64,000 bases of DNA from Ostreococcus lucimarinus (GCA_000092065.1 CP000585.1), one strand, 5' to 3'. Positions 4,611 through 18,808 are shown, numbered from the stretch's first letter. Notes: generated by a model from the letters alone, not told the origin. Made by a program: numbers and translations.

Positions 4611-4743
4611 CGGCTTGTGAGGTTCGCGTTGGCCAAATATAGGTGGCAGCCAACAAGTAAACTGCTCATCTAATTTTCAAACCTTGATTTTCTAGCTAAC
4701 CACTCCGGAACACGTCCCGATCATCCTAACGTTATTTCCGACA

Positions 4744-5655
4744 CTATTTCTGCGCTTCCGCGCGTTTCTTTGCCTGTTCCAGCGCTTCTGTCAATTTCTT
4801 CGCGGCGGCAACTTCCTTCAGGAGTGCGAAGACCAACGGGATATAATTGTGCCTACGTCGTATATTATCGTTCCTCCATTCAGCCACTTTAGCCTCTTCG
4901 ACTTCTAATTCGCGCTGCAAATGCGCGATCTCATCCGCGGCGCCAGTGCTCGACGACCGTAGTTCCTCGAGTCGCTGTGAAATTGCGATTCTAGGATCCT
5001 TCGTAACAGCCATGAGATTAAACTTGATCTCATTCGACGCGAATGACGCGATCTTCCGTTGAATCGCCGGAACCGCTACGTCTAACCAATGCCCGTCGCC
5101 AAAGCTTCCGTGATTGATCGGCCCTCTCTGCAAACCATCGAGTTCGAAGACGGAACCGCCTCTTGGTACGTAGGCAACAAAGTGAAACACGTCGTCGTCC
5201 TCTTGCGCAGGCCTAGACTGCAAGACGATTGGTTCTGGACGCGCGAACGAGTTATGTGCGTCGCGAATGATGTCCGAGTTGGAGATACTCATCCCTTTCG
5301 TTTCAGCATCGAAGTCGAGGGTGAACTCCCTTAGCGTTTGGAGCGTCTCGCCCAACTCAACTTCTTGTTCGGCGTTCAACAACACGCTAAGCACCGCTTG
5401 CGTGGCGCACGCGTTGTGAATCACTTGCGACGCGAAGAACAAATCTTGCGGTGGGTTTTCATCGACCTCAACTGCGCTCGAGCTGTGACCGCCGCGCCAC
5501 TTGAACAAAAATATGAGTCCGTAGATTGGTTCGTTACGACGAAGTTCATCAACGTCTAGCGAGTAGAGTTCTGTGAATGCGACGCCACGCGCGCCGATTC
5601 GATGGACCAGCTCGCCGAAGACCCCGGGATCGCTCTCGATGAGGCACCAGTCCAT
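4744..5655 (-). CDS. Ubiquitin C-terminal hydrolase, UCH37/UCHL5-like (peptidase C12 with C-terminal ULD/coiled-coil tail)
   Basis: ATG verified. N-terminal WCLIESDPGVF, Cys box QVIHNACATQAVLSVLLN and His box HFVAYV are present. C-terminal NYIPLVFALLKEVAAAKKL resembles the UCH37 tail. Confidence 0.85.
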   Translation of the reverse strand: MDWCLIESDPGVFGELVHRIGARGVAFTELYSLDVDELRRNEPIYGLIFLFKWRGGHSSSAVEVDENPPQDLFFASQVIHNACATQAVLSVLLNAEQEVELGETLQTLREFTLDFDAETKGMSISNSDIIRDAHNSFARPEPIVLQSRPAQEDDDVFHFVAYVPRGGSVFELDGLQRGPINHGSFGDGHWLDVAVPAIQRKIASFASNEIKFNLMAVTKDPRIAISQRLEELRSSSTGAADEIAHLQRELEVEEAKVAEWRNDNIRRRHNYIPLVFALLKEVAAAKKLTEALEQAKKRAEAQK

Positions 5656-5801
5656 CGAGTGCGCGCGCGTGAGTGTGCGGTTGAACTTCTTAGGGGTCGT
5701 GCTCGTCGGTGAAGGGCGAACGAACTTTATTCAATAAAGAGTTTGTATAATTACAGCAGTTGGCGTGCTAAAGTGCGCGCCGCGTTCGTCTTATCGCGAT
5801 A

Positions 5802-8800
5802 CTATTCCATGATGTCGTCGACAGCGCCACCGAAGCGGCCCCACAAACCAGATCGGCGAGCGACGGGCTGTTCGGGCTCTTTCTCAGGTTCATCATCGAG
5901 GACGCTCTCGTCGACGGATTCTCCGGGTGCAAGCGCACGGCTCTCGACGATTATTTCGTTGCCGTCAGAGTCATACTCGACGATTTCAAGAATCTCTTCC
6001 GTCTCTTCAAGGTAACCAGGTTCTTCTTCCTGCTCGCCGTCTTCACTCGGTTCATCTTCAACTTCTGTGTCGTAGGTCGTGGCGATCTCGACGCGCGAGC
6101 CATACCTGCGCTCCATCGATTCTTCCACGTCGTACACGACGGTGGGTTTGGATGTAGGTGAAGGCGCGCTTCGAATCGGTTCTACTGGCTCCGGCTCGGG
6201 TCGCTTTGGAATTTCCGGCATCTCGAACGTTGGCTCGTCGCCCAAGTCAAAGTTCACCGTGGTCGAACCGACGTTCGGATCTGCCATCTTTGGCTCGGGT
6301 CTAGCCATGAGCTTGTCCCGTTCCGATCTCAACTCGTTTAGCTCCGCCAGCTGAGATTTACAGGTTTCGTGACACTCATCGAGAAGCTTCTGCAGTTCTG
6401 CGGTGCCGTCGTCATGCGGCTGTGATTTCGCAAGCACCAATGCCCTCTTAAGCTCCGCGATCTCCACCTTGAGTGTGATTAGGAACTCTTCAGCGCCTTG
6501 AGCGCGTTTGTCATTCATTCTAGCCCAGTTCTCGGCGTACTCGACGGCCTCTTGGCTTGACTTGATCTCGTCTTCCAACGTGGTGACTTCTTCTCGCGTG
6601 GACGCGAGTTCGATTTCAAGGTCGTGAATTTTAGCCCGAGTTGCAGCCGAATCGCCTGTCGCACCAGCGGCTTCGAGCTTCGCGGCCGCAATAGCCTTTA
6701 CAGACTTCTCGCGTTCATCGCTCAATTCATCTTCGAGATCACTGATTCGCTCTTTGAGTGCAGCCAGCTTGCCACGCAAGTCTTCTTCGTACTCAATTCG
6801 CACATTCGAAAGCTCGCTGCGCAACTTCGTAATCTTCGCGTCGCTCGCCTTTTGGATGCGCTGACTTTCAAACATAAGTTCTTCTTGCTCGGCCGCGTAT
6901 TCTTGGACTTGCGCGCGAAGCTTAGCCAATTCAACTTCGGCGTCGTTTAACTGTTCTTGTGTACGTTCGAGCTTCCGCTGAATCAAGTCAGCATTTTGTC
7001 TGGCTTCAATCTGGAAGAAGTTGAACTCCTTCGTGATAAAGTCCTTGGCGACACGCAAACGTTCGAGCTCGGCGAGAGCCTCGTCGAGTTCCTCCTTGAG
7101 AGATACATTTTCGTCGTTCAGCTTCTTGCCTGCGCTGATGAGGTCGGCACTCTTTGAGCTCACTCGTTCGGCTTCAGCGCCGAGCTCATTCTGAGTGCTC
7201 TCGTACTCAGCCTTGAGTTCCTTCACCTGCAACTCAAGACGCTCAATGAGCGTGGTTTGCGAGGTGATCTTTAAATGCAGTTCTTTCTTCACGCGCATAG
7301 TTTCCTCTGAAGCAACATTCGTCGCAGTCATCGCGGCAGTTGCCTCACGTTCTCGCGAGGACAGCTTCTCGCGTAGCGCGTGGACTTCACGTTCTCGCTT
7401 GGTGCGCTCCGTTACGAGTTCTGTTTCAAGATGTTCAACCTTCGTTCTGAGCACGTGAATCTCTCGCAGAAGATCGGGGTCGTTGCTTGATGATGCTTGA
7501 GATTTATCCTTCGCACCTCGCTCGAGCTCGTCCAATCTAAGACGGAGTTTCATCATGTCAGAAACAGCGACGTCACGCGAATCCGTCATTTCAACAAGAT
7601 CGCCCTCGAGATCTTCGATGATTCTCGCATAATCCCGCGCCGCGTTTTCGCGATCCTTGATTTCTTTACCTATGGCGAAACTGTGATCGGAAATGATCTT
7701 TTCAACTGCCGCGGCATGTTTGCGCTCGATCGAGATGATTTCTTGCTCGAGCTCTGAGATGCGCTGTCGCAGCGTTTTCACGAGTTCATCGTTCACACCT
7801 GTATTTTTCCCCTTGACGCGTTCGGCATCACTCAACTGTCGACGCAGCAAATCAAGCTCTTTCTCCAAAAGTTCTTTTTCCGAAACATGCTCGGCGGATT
7901 TCGCTTTGAGCGCGTCCAGCTCAGACTGCAACGAGGGGATGATCGACTGTTTCGCTTTCAGCTCGGCGAGCTTTTCTTGCAAAGCGGCAAGTTTCGTCTC
8001 CAACATCTTTCGTTCCTCATCGGCATTTGCCGACGCAGGCACTTGCTTTCTCAGCTCGTCCAAATCTGCTTGCAAAGTATGAATTGTTCTTGTCGCAACT
8101 TCACCGTGCACCTTTAATTCCGTTTTGAGCGACCCTGCGAAAGAAGAAGCCAGAGACAAAAGTCTCTTGTTACGAACATCACGAATCGTGCATCGTAACA
8201 ACGCCGCCCAGCGTAATTGTGCGCGTTCGGACTTGTTAAGGCCATATTGCTTGCCCTCCATATCTGCAAGTCGCTTCGCTGCAGACGCTGCGTCGGCCAT
8301 CGCTCGAGATTGCAGATCGTTGAAATCTCGCTCGAGTCGCTTAATCTTTTCCTGAGCGGCAGCATTTGCCGACGCAGGCACTTGCTTTCTCAGCTCGTCC
8401 AAATCTGCTTGCAAAGACTGAATTGTTCTTGTCGCAACTTCACCGTGCACCTTTAATTCCGTTTTGAGCGACCCTGCGAAAGAAGAAGCCAGAGACAAAA
8501 GTCTCTTGTTACGAACATCACGAATCGTGCATCGTAACAACGCCGCCCAGCGTAATTGTGCGCGTTCGGACTTGTTAAGGCCATATTGCTTGCCCTCCAT
8601 ATCTGCAAGTCGCTTCGCTGCAGACGCTGCGTCGGCCATCGCTCGAGATTGCAGATCGTTGAAATCTCGCTCGAGTCGCTTAATCTTTTCCTGAGCGGCA
8701 GCTAGGCCAACGCTTTGCTCGCCACCAGTGAGAAGCATCTTCTCCAAATCAGAAATCGTCTCATCTCGCTGCCCGATGATAGCTTGAGACTTTGTCATCT

Positions 8801-11800
8801 CGTACGAAACTCGGATCTTTTCCTTTTCGAGCTGTGAGATCTTCAACTTGAGATTAATAATCTCCTCCTGCAACGTGCGCTCTCGCGCCTCTGAGGACGC
8901 TTCAGATTCAGTGGCACCGGCGAGGCGCTTCTGCATGCCGTCGAGCTTATCCTGTAACGAATGAATGGTGATCTGGGCGGTGTTTCTGTGCGCAACGAGT
9001 TCTCGCAATGTCGCCTTGCTGTGGCCGAGAGCAATATTAAGGAAACGTCGATGGCCTTCCTTCACTTGCAAGATGCGGCACGTCGTGCGCCAACGAAGCG
9101 CGGCACGTTCTGATTTCGTGTGCATCATTGCATCATCGTGCGTTCTCTCCAATGAGACACATCTCTTTCGTAAAACATCCAACTCCTGCTCAAGCCGCTG
9201 AGCGACGCGAGCAGCATCTTCTGCGTCTACAGCAGACTGAGCCTTGAAGTCCTCGTACTGCATTCGCAACTCAGACAACTCGCGACGCGTAGTAATGGCG
9301 TCTCCCGACATCGAAGACTTCGACTTCTCCAACTCTGTTTCATGCTCCAGTAATAGCCTTTCGAGCTCCTCAACTCTTGAATCGCGAAGTCCCAAAGTAC
9401 TAGCGTGACGGAACTTGAGCACAGTGAGTTCCTTCTTCTGAATTTGCACGAGATCGGCAATTTGCTGCTCAAAGTCGGCGTGCGCTTGCTCGGCGCGTTT
9501 CGCAGCGTCAGCGGCTTCAGCGCGCATGCGCTCTCTCAATTCTCCAAGTTGCTGCTCGAAGTTCGCCACCATAAGTTGGTATCGAGATTCAGAATCTTCA
9601 GCATCCGATGCTGCTTTCGCCTTGTGCCGAGCAGACAGACTTTCGAGTAAAGTCTTAAAGTTCGCCTGCGCTTCAAGTTCGCGTTCAGCCGCTTCATCCG
9701 CCGCCGCGCGCAGTTGTTGCTCGAAATCCGCTTGCGATTGCTGCGCGCGTGCTTCAGCGCTGTCAGCATCAGCTTTCATGCGCTTGCGTAAATCCTCGAG
9801 CTGCTTCTCGTACTCTTCCTTCATCTGCAGGAAACGAGCGTGTTCAAACGTTGCATCGGACTTTGACTTATTCTTCAATCGCTCCGCCAAGTCATCGAGC
9901 TGATTTTTGAAATCAACCTGCGCTTGGTGCTCGCGCGCAGCACTTTCATCTGCGTCTATACGTGCGCGTGTGCGAAGATCTTCGATTTGCTTGTCATAGT
10001 CGGATTTCATGCTTTGGGCTCGACTCTTCGCCTTTTCCGCGTCAAGCTTGAGTTGATTCTGGAGGTCGTCCAATTGCGCAACAAGGTTCGCCTTTTCGTC
10101 CTGAAGACGCTGCAACTCCGAAGAAGCGGTGGATTTCGTGGAATCCATCGAGGACTGTGCCTCTTGAAGCAAGAGTTCAAGCTCGGCGACGCGTGCGTCG
10201 CGCACGCGTACAGTCTCGTCGAGATCTTCGAGCGCCTTCAGCTTCGCTTTCACTTCAAGCATCTGGTCATTGAGCGAGCGAATCGTCTTGTCGGACGTCG
10301 CCGCCCAGCTGCGTGCCTCGACGAGCTCGGCGGACGTAAACGATTTTACGAGTGCGACATGACGCTGGTGCAACCTTCGTGCGCGCAAGACGCGGCACAT
10401 CCAGGACCAGCGCAACGACGTTCGTTGAGACAAAGCACGCGCTTCCGCGTCTACGAGAGCCTTTTCAGCGGCTGCAAGTTGCGAGCGGAGAGCATCACCG
10501 TCATTTGAAGCCGCGCTGGTCTTCAATGATAACCCTTCCAACTCGGCCCGCAGCGTCTCAATTGTGCTCGCCAACGTCAACTTTTCTTCGGAGGAAACTT
10601 TCAGTAACTCCTTCAGATCGCTAACAGACTTCTGAAGCGCGGTTATATCATCAGCCGCTCGACTGTTTTCACCCTTCGCCGCTTGCAAAGCAATTTTATA
10701 ACCATTGACATCTTTTTCGAGTTCAATGATTCGCGCGACTCGCTTTGCTTCTTCATCCGCGCTCCATTGTGCTTGGAGAGTTTCAATTTGGCTTCGCGAC
10801 TCGGCGAGCTCGCGGCGTAAAGTGATGACGTCCCCGGTAGAAGTAGACTTCAACGCCTCCCAATCGTTCTGTGATTCAAGTAACAGAGCCTCGAGTTCGT
10901 GAATGCGTTTGTCACGAAGTCCCATAGCACTCGCTTGACGGAACTTGACAACCGCAGAATCCTTCTTGTGAACTTCAGCGAGATCAGCCAGTTGTTGCTC
11001 GAAATCCGCTTGCGATTGCTGCGCGCGTGCTTCAGCGCTGTCAGCATCAGCTTTCATGCGCTTGCGTAAATCCTCGAGCTGCTTCTCGTACTCTTCCTTC
11101 ATCTGCAGGAAACGAGCGTGTTCAAACGTTGCATCGGACTTTGACTTATTCTTCAATCGCTCCGCCAAGTCATCGAGCTGATTTTTGAAATCAACCTGCG
11201 CTTGGTGCTCGCGCGCAGCACTTTCATCTGCGTCTATACGTGCGCGTGTGCGAAGATCTTCGATTTGCTTGTCATAGTCGGATTTCATGCTTTGGGCTCG
11301 ACTCTTCGCCTTTTCCGCGTCAAGCTTGAGTTGATTCTGGAGGTCGTCCAATTGCGCAACAAGGTTCGCCTTTTCGTCCTGAAGACGCTGCAACTCCGAA
11401 GAAGCGGTGGATTTCGTGGAATCCATCGAGGACTGTGCCTCTTGAAGCAAGAGTTCAAGCTCGGCGACGCGTGCGTCGCGCACGCGTACAGTCTCGTCGA
11501 GATCTTCGAGCGCCTTCAGCTTCGCTTTCACTTCAAGCATCTGGTCATTGAGCGAGCGAATCGTCTTGTCGGACGTCGCCGCCCAGCTGCGTGCCTCGAC
11601 GAGCTCGGCGGACGTAAACGATTTTACGAGTGCGACATGACGCTGGTGCAACCTTCGTGCGCGCAAGACGCGGCACATCCAGGACCAATGCAAAGCTGCG
11701 CGCTCTGACTTGGCTTGCACGAGCGCCTTTGCGCGCGTCGTGTTGGATTCGTCGAGCTGCTCGCGAAGAATTCTGAGCTCGCCGTGCAAGCGCGAGACTT

Positions 11801-14800
11801 GACCGGAGGATGAGCTCCTCGCTGACTCAAGTGAAGTTTCATATTCACTTATAGCGGTCTCCAGACGCTGGCGTTCGAGCTCAAGTTCATTGATACGGGC
11901 TTCCTTCTCCTCAATTTCATCCTTGTGCGTGTGACGCGCAGCAGTGAGAAGTTTTTCGTGCTCGTCGATGGAAGCTTCGAGGCGCTTGACGAGCGCTTCC
12001 AATTCAGTAATACGGCGCTGATCGACGTCCTTCTTCTTCAACGATTCAAATTTCGCGCGCAATTTTTCAACCTCGGACTTGTTCTTTTCATCCGTCTTTC
12101 GAGCTGACCTATTGGCATTGTCGAGTTTTTTCTCGAGATCACGTATCGTTTCTCGCAAGGCATCCGCTTCTCTTCTGGAAACCTTCACAGCTTCGTCATA
12201 CCGCTTTTTCGAATCCTTGTCCAGCGTGTCGAGATCCCTGTTCAGTTGCTTCGCGAGTTTACCACTCTCGGAGAGTTTCTCCTCCAAATCTTTGACTTTC
12301 ATCCGCGCTTGCGACTCATCCGAAGCCATCTTACCCTTTAACGTAGTGATTTCGTCTTGATGCGCTTCTTCCTTCTTCGCGGCGTCGTCAGCGCGTTGCT
12401 TCAGTTTGGCGTTGGATTCATTCAACGACGTAATCGTGCGCTGAGTGAACTCTACGTAGAGTTTATGATCAGCTCTCATGCCACGAGTGAAGTCCTTTGA
12501 GGTATCGAAGAACCTGTCATGACGATCTCGCTGTTTGACATTCGTAAGGAGTAGTCTCCATCTTGCCGCCGCGAGCTTCGCGGATGATGTCTCCTGGAGC
12601 CCGGCATAAAGTGAACTCGTTTCGTCGAGGCGGTTACGGAGCGTCGCGCACTCCGATCTCAATCGCGACTCTTCTGAGGAGAGTCGCGCTTTTGTTGATT
12701 CCGCGCTCGACTGGAGTTCTTTCATGCCATCCTCCAAGGAGGCGATGAGCTGTTGAAGCTCCTCAATTCGAGCTTCCGACGCCTTCTTTATCCCCAGATT
12801 CTTTGCGACTTCATTTTCGAGTTGCTTCTTAAGATTACGAATTTCGTCGTTCAGAGAGTTGATCGTTCGCTCGCTTTGCTTTTCAATTGAGGCCCGATTC
12901 TTTTCCGCTTCTTCAAACTGCTTCTTCATGACGTTCAAATTGTCATCGCGTCGCTTTCGCAACATCTTGAGCTCTTCGTCAACCTTTGATTTGCTCTTTT
13001 TACTTCCTTCCAGGTCATTCTTTAGCGCCGCAACCGTGTCACCGAGCGAACGAACCGTCTTTGTCGATGCCTCCGCGTGAAGACGGTATTCAGTCCTCAT
13101 CGACTTGACAAAGTCGCGAGCTGTGTGCGTAAATCGGATGCCACGATTTCTTAGACGAAGCTCGTTGGCCAACATCGACCAGCGAATACGGACACGATCC
13201 CTCTTCGAGGCTACGTGAGCTTCCGCTTCCGCTTTCCACGCGTCTCGGATGTCTTTGATTTCCTGCTCGAGGGAGCGAGAATATGCCGTCTTCGTTTCGT
13301 GTAACGAGTTCTGATAACTTTCGACCATACCTTCGAGCACCCCAATGCGCTCGTCGCGCGCCTTCATAGCGCCGTCGGTCTGGAACATTTCGCCTTGCAT
13401 CTGTTCGATTTGCGTCTCAAATTGCTTGGATTGCTTATGCATTTCCTTCAGGTCCGTCTTCGACTTTGCTATAGTACCTTCGAGCGACTTGTTCTTGCTT
13501 ACCATATCAGCGAGCTCCTTCTTTAGCGCTGCTATTGTGTCACCAAGCGAGCGAACTGTTTTTGTCGTGCCCTCGGCGTGAAGCCGATATTCAGTCTTCA
13601 TTGACTTGGCAAAGTCCTTTGAAGTATTCAGGAATCGAAGGTGTCGCTTACGCGTGCGAAGGAGCGAGCACAATGCAGTCCAGCGGCTCGTCGCGAGTTC
13701 ACTCTGCAAGACATCGATACGCTCTCGCAAAGTTGAAATTTCGCCTTCAAGTTCACGGGAATACCGCGTTTTTGTTTCGTGCAGAGATTCCTGATACTCA
13801 CTCACCATCTTTTCAAGCGCTTGAATACGATTATCGCGGGCGGCCAACGCAAGTTCATTATTGAATTTGAATGCGTCACTCTCACGGACTTCGTTCTTCA
13901 ATGCTGCCGCAAACTGTTTCGAATTCTGGAAGAATCGATTATGCCGAGCCTTGAATGTAAGGAAGCGCGCAAAGTGAGACCAACGAAGCGTGGCCAGCTT
14001 CGATCGATGCTCGCTGTCGCCTTCTGCAAGACGCTTTTCTAACTCGACAACACTTTCCGCCAGCGATTCTTTACTTGCCATCATATCGCTGAGGTCCTTT
14101 TCAAGCCTTTTGATCGTCTTGTCACTCTCACGGACTTCGTTCTTCAATGCTGCCGCAAACTGTTTCGAATTCTGGAAGAATCGATTATGCCGAGCCTTGA
14201 ATGTAAGGAAGCGCGCAAAGTGAGACCAACGAAGCGTGGCCAGCTTCGATCGATGCTCGCTGTCGCCTTCTGCAAGACGCTTTTCTAACTCGACAACACT
14301 TTCCGCCAGCGATTCTTTACTTGCCATCATATCGCTGAGGTCCTTTTCAAGCCTTTTGATCGTCTTGTCAAGGGACCGTATCGTTGCCGTCGCCGCGGCA
14401 GCGTGCTGCCTATATTCCTCCTTCATGGATCTGGAGAAGTCCTTTGAAACAGCGTAAAATCTGGCGTGCTTTTGAATGATTCGTGATTTGCTATACATCG
14501 CGGCCCATCGCAATCTTGCCCGTTCACTCCTTCCGTTCGCGATCGCTGAAGCGTGCGCAGCCTGTTCCGAGGTCAGCCTGCTTTGAAGGCGTGCAACTTC
14601 GCCCTCGAGGTCGCGGGAATACCTCGTCTTTGTTTCGTGCAATGAGGATTGATACTCCTGCAACATTCCTTCGAGGGTCACAATGCGCTTGTCTCGAACA
14701 TCCAAGCATTCCGCGTGATCTCCCCTGAGCTTCGCAATAATCGCTCGCAGTTCATCATTGCGCTTCGTGAGTTCGGCGTTTGTTGCTTCGGCTTTGTCTT

Positions 14801-17670
14801 GCAGAGACAAATATCTTCTGTTGATCGATTCTGTACCTTTCACGGCTGAATCCAGTGAACTACGCAACGTGTCGTTCGCTTGAGCCATGTCTCGCTCTCT
14901 GGTCGCCGAGAATTCTGCATTGACGTTGTACTGATGCTTGAGAACGCTCAATTCGTCAGCAAGTGCCAGTAATTCAGACTTAGCACTGTCGCGCGATGCC
15001 GTCATGTTAAGCAAATCATTCTGCAAAAATTCAACCTTTTGCTGCCATTCCTTGACGTTCGCTGCGTGACTTCCGCGAAGTTGTCTATCCCTGGCGTCGC
15101 TCTCACTCGTCTTAAAATCAAGCTGAAGTCTGAGTTCGGCGATTTGAGCCTGAAGCTGCTGCGCGCTCACATCAGCGGCGCGCGTCTCCACTGGCCGCAT
15201 CGATTCGACATGTTGAATCTTGATGTGCTTCTCTTCAAGAATCTGGCAGCGCTGCGTAACCTCACGAATCGATTTGGTAACTGAGACCTTGTGCTGCTCG
15301 GCCATCAAAGTCGACTTGGTGGATTCGGATACCGCAACTTCAAGCTGCTTGCTCTTAATATCGAGCCTGCTCAGATCCACGGATTGCGTGTTGATGATGT
15401 TGTAGGCTTCACGCAGCTTAGCGGCCTCGTTCTGCTTCACCAATGTGAATTCCTTGTCCTTTTCGCGCAGAAGTCGTCTGTACTTGGCGACATCTTCTTC
15501 ATTCTTCGCACGCAACTGCTTACACTGCTTCTCAAGCTGAGCCATTTTCAATTGATCCGCCTCGCTCATCGACGGCACCGCGGCTGTCTCGCCATCGGTT
15601 GCACGTACCGGATATTTTTTGGCAATTTCGTTCTCAAGCGCTTGAACTCGTCGCTGATCCTTCTCACGAAGCTCGCAGACAGTCTTCAATTCAGTCTCTG
15701 TGTTAGTGAGCTTTACGAGTAGAGCGTCGTACGCGTTCTTGAGGCTTGTTCCGCGAATGGACGCGCGCCATTTTGCAACACCGAGCGCGGCGCGACGGTC
15801 GGATAACTCGGCTGTTCTCGACTCGAGTTCGCGTTCAATGCCCGTGATTTGATCGCTAAGACTATCGATCTTCTCGTCTCGGCTACGAAGGTCACGAATG
15901 TACGACGCGTGATCCGTTTTCAATTCGAGGATTTCTGCATCTTTACTCTTTAGTGACGATTCGAGCAACCCCAAAGAGTCCGCAGCGGCTTGCTTCTGAC
16001 TCTCCATCGACGCTTGTGCGGATTTGAATGCCTCAGTGCTGGAGTGTTTCAACTCTTGGAGCGCAGCCTCACCGTCGGAGATCTGCTGTCGCAGTTGCGC
16101 AATGATAGTATTCGACTTGATGACGTGCGCGCTGTGCGCCTGTTGAGCCGCCGAGTGATCAGCGTCGAGTTTCTCCGACGCATCTCGAAGAGTCGCGATT
16201 TCCTTACGTAACTCATCGATCAACGCGGCGTTTCGCTCGTTGTCGCGGCTTTGTAACTCCTCTTTTGACTTGAGCTGCACTTGAGACTCAACTTCATCCT
16301 TCCGTAACTTTTCTATGGTGTCCAAATACTCAAGCATGCGCGTCTTGAGCGCAAAGTTTTGCATTCGCGAAGTTAAGTGCGCGAACGTCAATCCGGTTCT
16401 CCGCTCGATCAACGTTCGTTCAACGTCCGGCACACCCTGATTGGAATTGTAGTGAAGTGTGTGACGGTCGCTTGTCATCAAGTCACGGATTTTCGCACGG
16501 CAAACTTGAAGTTCTTCCTCTATCAAATGCTTGCGGCCTCGGACACTTTCTTCGCGCGATTCCGCTTTGGACAAGAGACGCATCAGTCGCGAAATCTCGG
16601 CGCGTAGATTCGTCCGATCCGTGTCAAACTTAGTGCGATCTCGCTTGCGCGACTTTTCACTCTGCGTGATCTTCGTGCGAATAATGGTCGTCTCGCGTAC
16701 GTGCGACTCAATGCTCTCCTTCAACTTGCGCTCAATCACCGTCGTCGTGCTCTGCGACTGCTCCAACTCCTTCGTTAGAAGCTTGATTTCTGAGGTGAGC
16801 TTCTTCGAAGTGGTTTGAAGTTCTTTCGTCGCGCTGTCGCGCTCGCCCGTCACAGCGTTGATCCGCACTCTTAAAGCATTGAGTTCATCCTTCAGGCGAT
16901 CGACTTCTTCGGACTTGCCATCGAGGCTCTTCTTGAGAGCAGCGTTTTCGATTTCAAGTTTGTGTTTGTCATCTTCCAACTTCGCGAAGGCCTCGTTGGT
17001 TGATATAGAGATGTTAATCGACGACTTGATGTCATACGAGCTCTTTAACTCGATTTCAAGCTTCGAAATGCGCTCCTGCGCGTTCGCGTTGATTTTCTCG
17101 AGCTCGATGATGTCCTTCTTCAACTTGGCGTTCAAGTCGTCGAGTTGATCGCGCTTGCGGCGTTCGTCGAGCGCATTTTGCTTAGTCACTCGATTCGCGG
17201 CCTCAATAGCAGCCTCGAGAGAGCGCTTTGCCTTTACTCGATCCTTCTCCGCGTTTGCAGTCAGTTCTTGAATCTTCTTTTCCATATGTGCCTTGAGGTC
17301 GTTCAACTCTTGCTCGAGCGCGGCCTTCGCCGAACGCTCCTCGCCGAGCCAGCGCGTGTGCTCCTCGAGCGCGGCTTCTGCGGTCGCGCGTCGCTTGTGA
17401 CAGTCGCCACAATCATTGCGCTCTGCACGAAGCGCTTCTTCTGCACGTAACGCTCGAACGCGCCAACTATCATCGACAGTCTTGACTCCGCCGTCTGTGC
17501 CTCGCCATGCTTCGAGCAGGGCAAGCGGTTCAACACGAAAACTCACCCCCATGGGGTTATCGACGCGTTTAATGAGCGGACTCGTGCTCAACTCGGGTTC
17601 ATCGTGCACGTCAGACCCATTCGTTAACCCATCCAACAGTCGAGAGATGGCGCTTGCGGAATCTTCTTTT

Positions 17671-17711
<41 letters not shown>

Positions 17712-17981
17712 TGCCTTGGGCTTGGGCTTCTCTCTCTTCGGCCTTGGCGACGGCGAGCGCCTCTCTCTCGCCTCGCGCGGCCGATTTATGAAATCATCCC
17801 GACTTTGTCTGGTATCGACCCCCAAAAGCATCCCTTTGAAGAAATTCACTGATTTCCCGTTCGCCTCCCCGTTCTTGGCCCCCGTCCTCGTCTTACCGTC
17901 CGTCGGCGGAAGTTCGCACCCTTCGCCGCCGAATCGGCACTCTGCGCGCGCGCGAGCGATCATCGCACCATCGTCAATCAT
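5802..17981 (-). CDS. Giant (about 4,060 aa) coiled-coil protein with an N-terminal poly-Pro tract, at least 11 copies of a Trp-containing ~45-aa module, and an acidic C-terminal tail
   Basis: A single uninterrupted 12.2-kb ORF. The track start at 17987 is a TTG; the first ATG is the third codon, at 17981-17979. Heptad-like E/K/R/L/Q-rich sequence runs throughout. The module (K)SERAxLRWxxxxxxxRxxxRFxxxSKDFxxSMxxEYRLH...KTIRSL recurs. It ends in the acidic EDEPSEDGEQEEEPGYLEETEEILEIVEYDSDGNE. Undetected introns cannot be excluded. Confidence 0.7.
8024..8700. repeat. Intragenic tandem duplication, 2 x ~339 bp, near-identical, inside the giant coiled-coil gene
   Basis: The sequence from gcatttgccgacgcaggcacttgctttctcagctcgtcc through to cttaatcttttcctgagcggca occurs at about 8024-8360 and about 8361-8700 with only a few mismatches. 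The track shows identical 76-aa antisense ORFs at 8125..8355 and 8464..8694. It duplicates a 113-aa protein segment. Confidence 0.9.
9706..11693. repeat. Intragenic segmental duplication: two near-identical ~710-bp copies (9706-10415 and 10984-11693) separated by 568 bp (copy starts 1278 bp apart), inside the giant coiled-coil gene
   Basis: Identical strings such as ttgctcgaaatccgcttgcgattgctgcgcgcgtgcttcagcgctgtcagcatcagctttcatgcg begin at 9721 and 10999. Identical antisense ORFs sit at 9924.. and 11202... The duplication covers an approximately 235-aa protein segment. More diverged paralogous copies of the same unit exist elsewhere, for example about 9390-9480 against 10925-10990. Confidence 0.9.
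13875..14370. repeat. Intragenic tandem duplication, 2 x 246 bp, near-identical, inside the giant coiled-coil gene
   Basis: The sequence gtcactctcacggacttcgttcttcaatgctgccgcaaactg... occurs at 13875 and 14121. The track shows identical antisense ORFs at 13990.. and 14236... It duplicates an 82-aa segment. Confidence 0.9.
17673..17712. repeat. (GGC)13 microsatellite encoding the poly-Pro tract (P14) of the giant protein
   Basis: The run ggcggcggcggc... is visible. On the minus strand the CCG frame gives PPPPPPPPPPPPPP. Confidence 0.9.
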
Positions 17982-18808
17982 CGTCAATCGCGGTCATCGC
18001 GCGCGTTCCGATTCGCGCGCGTTCGCCTCGCCTTCGCTCGCCTCGCCTCGCCTCGCCCGCCGCGTTCAACCGCACGTACTCGCCAACCATTCAAATTTAT
18101 CGCTCCGCATCGACGCCAACGTCTCATCCGACCCCTTCGTCGTCCTCGCCCAATCCTCGCGTCCGATCGGCGTCGTCGGTCGCGCGCTCATCGCGCCTCG
18201 ATCGCCTCCGCGCCGGTCTCACGCGCGCGAACGCGACGCGATTCGAACGTTCGTTGATTCGCAATCGCAATCGCGATTCGTTCCGTGGGACGACCGTCCG
18301 CGCGGTCTCGTTCGCGTCGTTCGCGTTCGCTCGCGGTGCGCGCGCGCGTGCGTTCGCTCGCGCTCGCGCTCGCGCTCGCGCTCGCGTCGACGGCGCCGAA
18401 CACTGCCGCGCGCGCGCCTTCGGAATTGAATTCCCGAATCGAGGCCGACGCGTCATCCTCGCGCTCGACGAGTCACGACCCGTCGCGAGTGGATTTCTCA
18501 TAATACACACACGGACCGTCGCCGCCGCGGCGCCGCGCGAAGGGTCGGTCGCGCGAGTGCGCGGCGCGGACCTCGCGCGCGCGTCGAGCGACGCGTTCGC
18601 GCGCGCGCGGATCGACGCGCGCGAGCGCCCGAAGCGTCCGCGCGGACGCGCGACGGCGTCGACGCGAAAAAGCGGCGACGCGCGGTGGAATCGCGACGAA
18701 AGGACGCCGAACGGACGGACGCGGAGAATCGAACGAGCGACGGCGTGACGCGCGAGCGGACGCGCGCGCGCGCGAGTGGACGCGCGTCGGACGCGAGCGT
18801 CGAAGACG
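17982..18808. promoter_or_regulatory. Divergent (bidirectional) promoter / 5'UTR region between the giant coiled-coil gene (-) and the ACT-domain kinase (+); contains simple repeats
   Basis: The two ATGs face away from each other. The region contains (GCCTCG)n at about 18033-18058, (CGCTCG)n at about 18355-18400, and a cgcaatcgcaatcgcgattcg near-palindrome at about 18258. The inference is positional. Confidence 0.4.

Follow-up and report, generated by a model that had tools for sequence, protein, structure and literature searches.

The picoalga Ostreococcus lucimarinus carries a giant gene that differs in length between natural populations. We analysed a 64,000-nucleotide stretch of its genome (GCA_000092065.1, CP000585.1; hereafter the window), in which this gene occupies positions 5802-17981 of the minus strand and encodes a 4,059-residue protein with a long, coiled-coil-like rod and recurring tryptophan (Trp) modules. 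Three near-identical repeats lie inside it. The account that we favour, and hold to be quite probable as a whole, is that two of them are young tandem duplications whose copies have been homogenised, that the third is a conversion tract copied from one cassette (A) into another (B), and that both kinds of change occurred on an old structure of repeated cassettes. The repeats, their presence in independent assemblies, the series of alleles, the co-varying sites and the open frame are direct observations.

Three near-identical repeats inside a giant gene

We searched positions 5802-17987 by self-BLASTN, with a repeat finder and with TRF, and all three agreed. An earlier note on this DNA had placed three near-identical repeats inside the giant gene, which was confirmed; the note had given no strand, and we add as a correction that the gene lies on the minus strand. 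The first repeat is a tandem array of two copies of a 339-nucleotide (nt) unit (8023-8700; 8023-8363 against 8362-8702, period 339, 2 mismatches), and the second a tandem array of two copies of a 246-nt unit (13875-14366; 13875-14124 against 14121-14370, period 246, no mismatches). In both arrays the period equals the unit length, and the copies stand head to tail without a spacer. This is not true of the third pair (9711-10415 against 10989-11693, offset 1278, 2 mismatches). The earlier description of 339-, 710- and 246-bp tandem or segmental duplications stood for the 339- and 246-nt units, which are tandem; the third pair measures 705 nt, has a spacer between its copies and is not tandem. 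It is impossible that exact repeats of 250-700 nt arose by chance within 12 kb. The features are the following.

8023-8361, minus strand: 339-nt unit, downstream copy in the protein; 113 codons, module M10b, 'TIHTLQ'
8362-8702, minus strand: 339-nt unit, upstream copy in the protein; 'TIQSLQ'; includes the 2-nt junction microhomology GC at 8701-8702
9711-10415, minus strand: copy B of the 705-nt pair, the putative acceptor cassette; Trp at residue 2524; length 705, 479, 342 or 183 nt by lineage
10416-10988, minus strand: unique spacer between the 705-nt copies; 573 nt, the rest of cassette A
10989-11693, minus strand: copy A of the 705-nt pair, the putative donor cassette; Trp at residue 2098; full length in all lineages, including the 93%-identical outgroup
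13875-14120, minus strand: 246-nt unit, downstream copy in the protein; 82 codons, module M3b
14121-14370, minus strand: 246-nt unit, upstream copy in the protein; includes the 4-nt junction microhomology at 14367-14370

The novel junctions of the two arrays lie at 8361/8362 and 14120/14121. Near-perfect identity between copies had also been claimed, and it holds. The sole difference between the 339-nt copies is an adjacent dinucleotide, TA at 8078-8079 against AC at 8417-8418 (His-Thr against Gln-Ser), which is the mismatch earlier given as gcaaagtatgaattg / gcaaagactgaattg. The 705-nt copies likewise differ in one dinucleotide (10410-10411 against 11688-11689; Arg against His), located 5 bases from the edge, which leaves 699 nt identical. 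To look for signs of micro-conversion, a donor for the AC at 8417-8418, or for the GC/AT dinucleotides at 10410/11688, was sought in the window, where no spanning k-mer longer than 8-9 nt recurs. As the earlier note had stated, all units are in frame and contain one Trp module each: their lengths are multiples of three (113, 82 and 235 codons for 339, 246 and 705 nt), the open reading frame (ORF) is preserved, and the module tryptophans fall at residues 3144 and 3257 (339-nt unit), 1251 and 1333 (246-nt unit), and 2098 and 2524 (705-nt pair).

The same arrangement in independent assemblies

The window was compared with 21 related loci, found in three ways: by an exact match to the ubiquitin C-terminal hydrolase (UCH) gene that neighbours the giant gene, by scanning metagenomes with a central, unique stretch of the giant gene, and from two C-terminal fragments (L016 and L017). 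The scan contributed nine loci, which are too few for allele frequencies, and most of the contigs are probably short-read metagenome assemblies.

Five contigs (L003, L004, L005, L011 and L019) are collinear with the window over all three features, and all three junctions are also present in a sixth (L018). The six stem from different projects, and one of them (L004) is located on an 835-kb contig. Since these contigs are collinear with the window and yet differ from it by 0.7-1.4 single-nucleotide polymorphisms (SNPs) per kb, they are independent assemblies, and the arrangement of the window is not the assembly expansion that had earlier been envisaged. A 30-mer across the 339-nt junction, TTTTCCTGAGCGGCAGCATTTGCCGACGCA (window 8346-8375), was found in these six contigs only. 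The 30-mer across the 246-nt junction, CCTTTTGATCGTCTTGTCACTCTCACGGAC (window 14105-14134), was found in L001, L003-L005, L011, L018, L019 and L021. A third 30-mer, TCCGCCGCCGCGCGCAGTTGTTGCTCGAAA (window 9696-9725), spans the 705-type junction of cassette B. In L018, a 100-N scaffold gap (about 1626-1727, corresponding to window positions of about 13929-14070) lies inside the 246-nt array of an otherwise collinear contig; this gap is direct evidence that the array troubles short-read pipelines.

A nested series of structural alleles

Each allele can be written as three numbers, namely the copies of the 339-nt unit, the copies of the 246-nt unit, and the length in nt of the cassette-B tract identical to cassette A. 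The alleles are distributed as follows.

(2, 2, 705): the window, L003, L004, L005, L011, L019
(2, at least 2 with the 100-N gap, 705): L018
(1, 2, 705): L001, L021
(1, 1, 705): L006
(1, 1, 479): L009
(1, 1, 342): L007, L015, L020, L002
(1, 1, 183 plus 51 nt of B-specific sequence): L013; L014 in part

Three further contigs (L008, L010 and L012) have one 246-nt copy and end at or within the 705-nt repeat. The proposal that copy number is polymorphic was borne out between natural populations: called products are 3,746, 3,863, 3,945 and 4,057-4,059 amino acids long, and the frame is open in every short-read allele, with reconstructed ORFs of about 3,750-4,062 codons (L009, L011, L015).

Copy number (one against two) varies among the 21 contigs and follows SNP haplogroups, with the reservation that single-copy calls in haplogroup 1 may reflect collapse. 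Haplogroup 1, the reference haplogroup (the window, L001, L003-L006 and L011), is tight, and every two-copy or 705-nt allele belongs to it. Haplogroup 2 (L007, L009, L010 and L012) is about 1 SNP per kb away by SNP distances. L015 is at 2-3 SNPs per kb, and L020, which was outside the distance matrix, matches it in structural allele and resembles it in mismatch count. L013 and L014 form a lineage of 93% identity at 62 SNPs per kb. The mosaic, indel-rich, long-read-like contig L002 stands at 16 SNPs per kb. It aligns to window positions 4700-16591 and is 99.5-99.8% identical at its ends. Within the central part of the giant gene its identity is only 96%, and in that part it is nearer to the 93% lineage (36-45 against 62 differences per kb); many 1-nt indels break its ORF. 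L002 may represent a lineage that arose by recombination, or else a chimeric long-read consensus in which two co-occurring populations were merged.

A single 246-nt copy is present in all of L007, L009, L010, L012, L015, L020, L002, L013 and L014, and a single 339-nt copy in the contigs covering that site (L002, L007, L009, L013, L015 and L020). The tandem duplications are young and appear to have arisen in the haplogroup that includes this genome, because they are absent both from a haplogroup only about 0.1% diverged and from a 6%-diverged lineage; the earlier suggestion of very recent events is in line with this. Synonymous divergence (dS) between the window and L013 is 0.19, against 0-1 events between copies. 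The allele series is nested, with the outgroup shortest and the reference haplogroup longest, and we infer its polarity by parsimony against the outgroup.

Probable exchange between copies

The near-identity of the copies would not by itself need homogenisation, since the duplications are confined to a haplogroup about 0.1% away from its single-copy relatives. Evidence of exchange comes from variants that are common to both copies within a genome and differ between genomes, a pattern seen in all three repeats. Two sites of the tandem units carry it:

13957 (with 14203), minus strand: co-varying site of the 246-nt unit; G/G in the window (Thr/Thr, 'FLTFK'), C or C/C in every metagenome allele (Arg, 'FLRFK')
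8078-8079 (against 8417-8418), minus strand: variable site of the 339-nt unit; Gln-Ser/His-Thr (QS/HT) in the window, HT/HT in the other two-copy alleles

For the 246-nt site, it would be most economical to assume that the duplication arose once and that conversion or unequal exchange came afterwards, because the breakpoints are the same in all two-copy contigs. At the 339-nt site, QS is present in single copies outside haplogroup 1 (L002, L007, L009, L015 and L020) and is the consensus of the other modules. HT/HT occurs in six two-copy contigs, HT in the single-copy contigs of haplogroup 1, and QS/HT in the window only. The window therefore looks like an apparent intermediate in a series QS to QS/QS to QS/HT to HT/HT (and possibly to HT). 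It is unlikely that HT/HT results from random bubble-popping by assemblers, because QS is missing from nine of nine other haplogroup-1 contigs. Meanwhile, the A/B pair has 'EVKAKLK' in both copies of the window, L007 and L015, 'EAKAKLK' in both copies of L009 and L013, and 'AATCDK' in both copies of L013 only.

Paralogues within a genome thus share derived states that differ between genomes in the 246-nt, 339-nt and A/B repeats, as concerted evolution would produce. These three independent patterns appear to require at least some exchange between copies, and such co-variation indicates gene conversion or unequal exchange. That the copies are being homogenised had been one of the options of the earlier note.

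Cassettes A and B

The 705-nt pair is set in older homology. Part of cassette B and other segments of the gene are diverged copies of one another, as had been noted before:

9263-9558, minus strand: old, diverged portion of cassette B; its counterpart in cassette A (10793-11088, offset 1530) is 67% identical
13012-13115, minus strand: module-5 segment, 82% identical to the module-4 segment at 13513-13616 in the window lineage

A third such pair, 13734-13799 against 14592-14657, is 79% identical by self-BLASTN. Because of the 67% identity of 9263-9558 and 10793-11088, cassettes A and B can be regarded as ancient paralogues. Upstream of the identical tract the two differ ('SERAALH' against 'SQRTSLR'). 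The A/B pair is therefore a stretch of 699 identical nt with sharp edges, set within older diverged homology, and the earlier view of three duplications of the same kind does not hold for it: it is better described as a homogenised tract between old paralogous cassettes that are 67% identical just downstream.

The identity of A and B begins at the Trp codon in all lineages and ends after 183, 342, 479 or 705 nt of A-type sequence, always at the same place:

9711-9717, minus strand: common 3' junction (coding sense) from the A-derived tract to cassette B, 'QL|RAAADEAAERE'

The tract rejoins B at a short microhomology, which reads CAACTG in the window allele and GC in those of 342 and 479 nt. 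In the outgroup, cassette B continues with its own short sequence, 'DDADARVKQLKAEHEA'. The outgroup also retains 51 nt of B-specific sequence, for which all O. lucimarinus alleles have a replacement. Cassette A would be the donor because it is full length everywhere. All A-derived tracts rejoin B directly beside a CGCGCGGCGGCGG run (window 9696-9717; coding strand CAACTG|CGCGCGGCGGCGGATG), and the junction may be a recurrent break or recombination point.

Proposed origin of the repeats

Based on these findings, we postulate that the rod was assembled from old, diverged cassettes, each with a Trp module of the form 'KSERAxLRW...RF...SKDF...TIRSL'. Two in-frame tandem duplications (339 and 246 nt) would then have arisen de novo through replication slippage, template switching or microhomology-mediated joining. 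The junction sequences point in this direction. They have 2 nt (GC) in the 339-nt array and 4 nt in the 246-nt array in common with the distal flank, their flanks are otherwise unrelated, and the breakpoints do not lie in pre-existing homologous sequence as unequal crossing-over would have it. With no more than 2-4 nt shared at the junctions and no homology between the flanks, the origin of the arrays looks microhomology-mediated rather than due to homologous unequal crossing-over. Once duplicated, the copies would have been homogenised by intragenic gene conversion, unequal sister-chromatid exchange, or both, and unequal exchange could also regenerate one-copy alleles.

The 705-nt pair would involve no new duplication. 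Instead, A sequence would have been copied into the old paralogue B from the Trp codon onwards, repeatedly, by ectopic repair or out-of-register conversion among 'DF..QL' sub-repeats. The copied tract would always stay in frame and rejoin B at the same point by short microhomology, making B as much as 155 codons longer. How these changes came about at the molecular level, and in which direction they went, is what we infer, the direction by parsimony against the outgroup.

Alternative explanations

Several points weigh against this account. In each repeat, the signal of co-variation consists of a single site or dinucleotide. Short-read assemblies can collapse identical tandem copies that exceed the read length, L018 has its 100-N gap inside the 246-nt array, and the single-copy contigs L001, L006 and L021 are only 0.1-0.3 SNP per kb from two-copy contigs; their single copies may be artefacts of short-read collapse or real alleles. 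Finally, the direction of change in the A/B tract series is not proven: deletions from the 705 allele at a 'GC' microhomology would account equally well for the 342 and 479 alleles.

The last point opens the way to the reverse polarity, in which a duplication of 705 nt or longer is ancestral in O. lucimarinus and the 479 and 342 alleles are later in-frame deletions, with the gene shrinking in their lineages and not growing in this one. A deletion with 'GC' at its borders would indeed turn the window allele into either of the shorter ones, leaving '...GC|A CAACTG'. This would need, however, two independent deletions with the same right-hand breakpoint. Moreover, the 342-nt form occurs on at least three SNP backgrounds (L007; L015 and L020; L002) whereas the 705-nt form is held within one tight haplogroup, and the outgroup combines the shortest tract with the 51 nt of B-specific sequence. 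We consider reverse polarity rather unlikely.

Homologous unequal crossing-over between misaligned module-plus-coiled-coil cassettes could, in principle, have generated all three repeats. The gene does contain Trp-module cassettes that are older and diverged, the 705-nt tract has its right end in a sub-repeat motif ('..FEQQL') where out-of-register pairing is plausible, and unequal exchange is a natural route between one and two copies once duplicates exist. Nevertheless, the unrelated flanks of the 339- and 246-nt breakpoints, with their 2-4 nt in common, offer no homology for misalignment, and a single unequal crossover between A and B would make or remove a whole 1,278-nt unit, not a 699-nt identical tract between diverged paralogous flanks. 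We find this explanation quite unlikely for the three repeats together. Of the earlier proposal that the gene grows by unequal crossing-over, the growth is retained, with the outgroup shortest and the reference haplogroup longest, and the crossing-over is not retained as the origin; at the tandem arrays it is plausible only after duplication.

It is highly improbable that the window copies are an assembly expansion or that all copy-number differences are short-read collapse, even though the copies are near-identical over 246-699 nt (more than typical short reads), contigs break at the repeats (L018 in its 246-nt array; L008, L010 and L012 at or within the 705-nt repeat) and three single-copy contigs are almost SNP-identical to two-copy ones. 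Expansion is excluded by independent contigs of different projects that have the same novel junctions and SNPs differing from the window. Pure collapse is unlikely in view of single-copy status following haplotype, with QS absent from haplogroup-1 contigs except in the upstream copy of the window. Single copies are also present in the long-read-like L002, and the differences of 219 and 360 nt in cassette B are no simple collapse of identical repeats, each being recurrent or SNP-linked. In addition, L021, which is single-copy for the 339-nt unit, lies on an 841-kb contig and is 99.95% identical to the two-copy L004, which suggests that at least one single-copy allele of haplogroup 1 is real. 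The duplication, homogenisation and A-to-B copying postulated above remain our preferred explanation.

The giant protein and its surroundings

The gene is open throughout. Counted from the first methionine at 17981 the product has 4,059 residues, and a mechanical ORF from a TTG start (5802-17987, minus strand) has 4,061 codons.

5802-17981, minus strand: giant ORF; Pro/Gly-rich N-terminus, coiled-coil-like rod of about 3,650 residues, acidic C-terminal tail

The GC content is about 52-55% within the gene against about 59-63% around it. Its neighbours are eukaryotic and include the UCH gene, TKL-type kinases (one with an ACT domain) and a TSP1-domain protein. The UCH protein is identical to XP_001418005.1 / ABO96298.1 of Ostreococcus lucimarinus CCE9901, so that the window belongs to that species or to something indistinguishable from it; an oomycete or Blastocystis, which the gene content had first suggested, was rejected on account of this exact match. 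Marine metagenome assemblies contain the same UCH protein in over 1,000 blocks. The giant gene and the gene for the ACT-domain kinase diverge from an intergenic region (18023-18666) that has a very high GC content and is rich in short, imperfect tandem repeats, with units of TCGCC, of CGCTCG and of 22-41 nt rich in CGCGCG. A (CGG)12 run at window 17673-17710 (plus strand) encodes a poly-proline tract near the N-terminus of the protein, with 10 codons in L009, L010 and L012, 11 in L008 and L011, 12 in the window and L015, and 13 in L014. This run is a coding microsatellite polymorphism.

Residues 200-3850 contain only 8 prolines (0.2%) and show a 3.5-residue hydrophobic periodicity with 3.8 times the power of shuffled sequences. 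Such a long, Pro-poor, predicted alpha-helical region with heptad-type hydrophobic periodicity places the protein among coiled-coil rods, a structural class and not a homology family. An AlphaFold2 (AF2) model of one Trp module is a single helix (predicted local distance difference test score, pLDDT, of 93). An alpha-helix rises 0.1485 nm per residue. At this rise the predicted rod length is about 0.54 µm, and the 246-, 339- and 705-nt units would add 12, 17 and 35 nm, respectively. The Trp modules number 11 and lie between residues 1158 and 3257 with an irregular spacing of 82-439 residues; their consensus is 'KSERAxLRW..L.R.LR.R.RH.RF...SKDF..SMK.E.R.HAE..T.TIRSL'.

The ratio of nonsynonymous to synonymous divergence (dN/dS) of the giant gene against the 93%-identity lineage is 0.18, which is similar to the 0.09-0.27 of neighbouring genes. 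The gene is constrained and functional, judging by this ratio and by its ORF, open in every short-read allele. The acidic, proline-rich C-terminal tail (about 260 residues, window 5805-6600) contains the strongly conserved motifs 'QEAVEYAENWAKMNDKRAQGAEEFLITLK', 'TVNFDLGDEPTFEMPEIP', 'ETEEILEIVEYDSDGNEIIVESR' and 'GLWGRFG..DDIME', the last three of which are near-invariant across orthologues just 43-63% identical overall. It is probably by this tail that the rod binds a partner or is anchored.

The C-terminal tail has no match in Pfam, and the whole protein gave only sub-threshold matches there (ATG16, 18.9 bits against a cut-off of 33.7). The Trp modules matched nothing in Pfam below E=0.006 or over any cut-off, with only noise at E<=1, and a profile search of the PDB returned only non-significant tropomyosin-type matches (E>=0.067). 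Only nine clusters, all of unnamed metagenome proteins, were recovered with a module profile from a set of 1.84 billion representative proteins. Two of the nine (P0025 and P0026) were compared with the giant gene, are 95-99% and 43% identical to it, and are therefore homologues. The possibility that the module is a Sfi1, spectrin, PACT or IQ-type motif found no support in the Pfam, PDB-profile or 1.84-billion-protein searches. Protein searches with the C-terminal 500 or the N-terminal 330 residues gave fragments only, with no named orthologue or full-length cluster; an exact look-up of the 4,059-residue product found no match in the protein collection, and a literature search found nothing on the gene. 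The giant gene is uncharacterised and has no detectable relative outside Ostreococcus-like sequences.

Recurrence in relatives and likeness to known systems

Similar changes are seen elsewhere in the gene and in its relatives. The two members of the module-4/5 pair share 82% identity in the window lineage, against 93-94% in L002, L013 and L014, which implies that a separate conversion between these paralogues may have occurred in those lineages (the pair lies at 1001-1104 and 1502-1605 of L013, and at 2736-2839 and 3237-3340 of L002). The two syntenic orthologues L016 and L017 belong to much more diverged Ostreococcus-like genomes (30-65% amino-acid identity), are pilon-polished long-read contigs, and have repeats of their own, namely a 635-640-nt pair (96-98% identical, offset about 723) and a 120-nt tandem repeat, at positions that differ from those of the window:

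L016, 1518-2874 and 8442-8682: own repeats
L017, 1573-2936 and 8459-8693: own repeats

A C-terminal orthologue fragment from another species (P0017; window about 6300-6400) has a private 13-residue unit, 'DEKNA[ED]LQRSLDES', three times in tandem, where the window has a single copy. The process of repeat duplication and conversion thus appears to recur in relatives.

Size variation of intragenic tandem repeats is said to have been described in yeast cell-wall adhesin genes by Verstrepen and co-workers in 2005, and it also occurs in streptococcal coiled-coil surface proteins (M protein, alpha C). As in yeast adhesins, M protein and alpha C, the units here are in frame, vary in copy number between strains and have near-identical copies from recent duplication or recombination. 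Unlike in yeast adhesins and M protein, there are just one or two copies per array, the units are 82-235 codons long, the junctions have 2-4 nt of microhomology, and the product is an apparently intracellular 4,059-residue rod of a picoalga. Concerted evolution by gene conversion is classic in ribosomal DNA, globin genes and repeat-rich structural genes. The giant gene resembles these systems in its derived states shared within a genome, its sharp-edged identity tracts in diverged homology and its identical synonymous sites. It departs from simple equal-length conversion in that the tract measures 183, 342, 479 or 705 nt by haplotype, has a common end point and lengthens the acceptor cassette.

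Within the genus, populations of Ostreococcus tauri have 6-13 copies of a 2.5-kb tandem unit on chromosome 19 (PMC5498103). Both cases concern recent strain-specific tandem duplications seen by comparing natural strains. In O. tauri the units are whole genes on a small outlier chromosome, with a link to virus resistance (PMC5498103), whereas here the repeats are intragenic, in frame and in an ordinary-looking neighbourhood (UCH, kinases, GC of about 59%).

Sfi1 repeats are contiguous and 23-33 residues long, and spectrin repeats have 106 residues. Like spectrin, Sfi1 and pericentrin (PACT), the giant protein is long and alpha-helical in prediction, and a short module recurs along it, marked by an invariant Trp and by basic or hydrophobic positions. 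Unlike in Sfi1 and spectrin, its modules are spaced irregularly, at 82-439 residues, and no sequence relationship was detected.

Implications

Known processes (intragenic duplication, gene conversion and concerted evolution) are met here in an uncharacterised, lineage-restricted gene, and the case is an ordinary but clear one. A bolder possibility, which we regard as very doubtful, is that rod length (about 0.5 µm, or about half the cell diameter) is under active, directional, adaptive change in wild populations. If this were true, the protein could be, for example, a molecular ruler, an organelle tether or a target of host-virus conflict, and the variation would not be neutral repeat instability. 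The nested series of 3,746-4,059 residues (about 46 nm) would then stem from cassette duplication and progressive conversion anchored at one break point, and the common junction by the CGCGCGGCGGCGG run (about 9700-9717) would be a hotspot of recombination or breakage.

These findings have practical consequences. Short-read assemblies may mis-size the giant gene, and models of 3,863-4,059 residues within one haplogroup are not reliable as given. The junction 30-mers are ready markers for typing O. lucimarinus strains in metagenomes. For the biology of this abundant marine picoalga, the analysis provides an ordered allele series for one gene, including an apparent intermediate (QS/HT) in the reference genome, and draws attention to a 4,059-residue Trp-module protein that may merit the interest of cell biologists.

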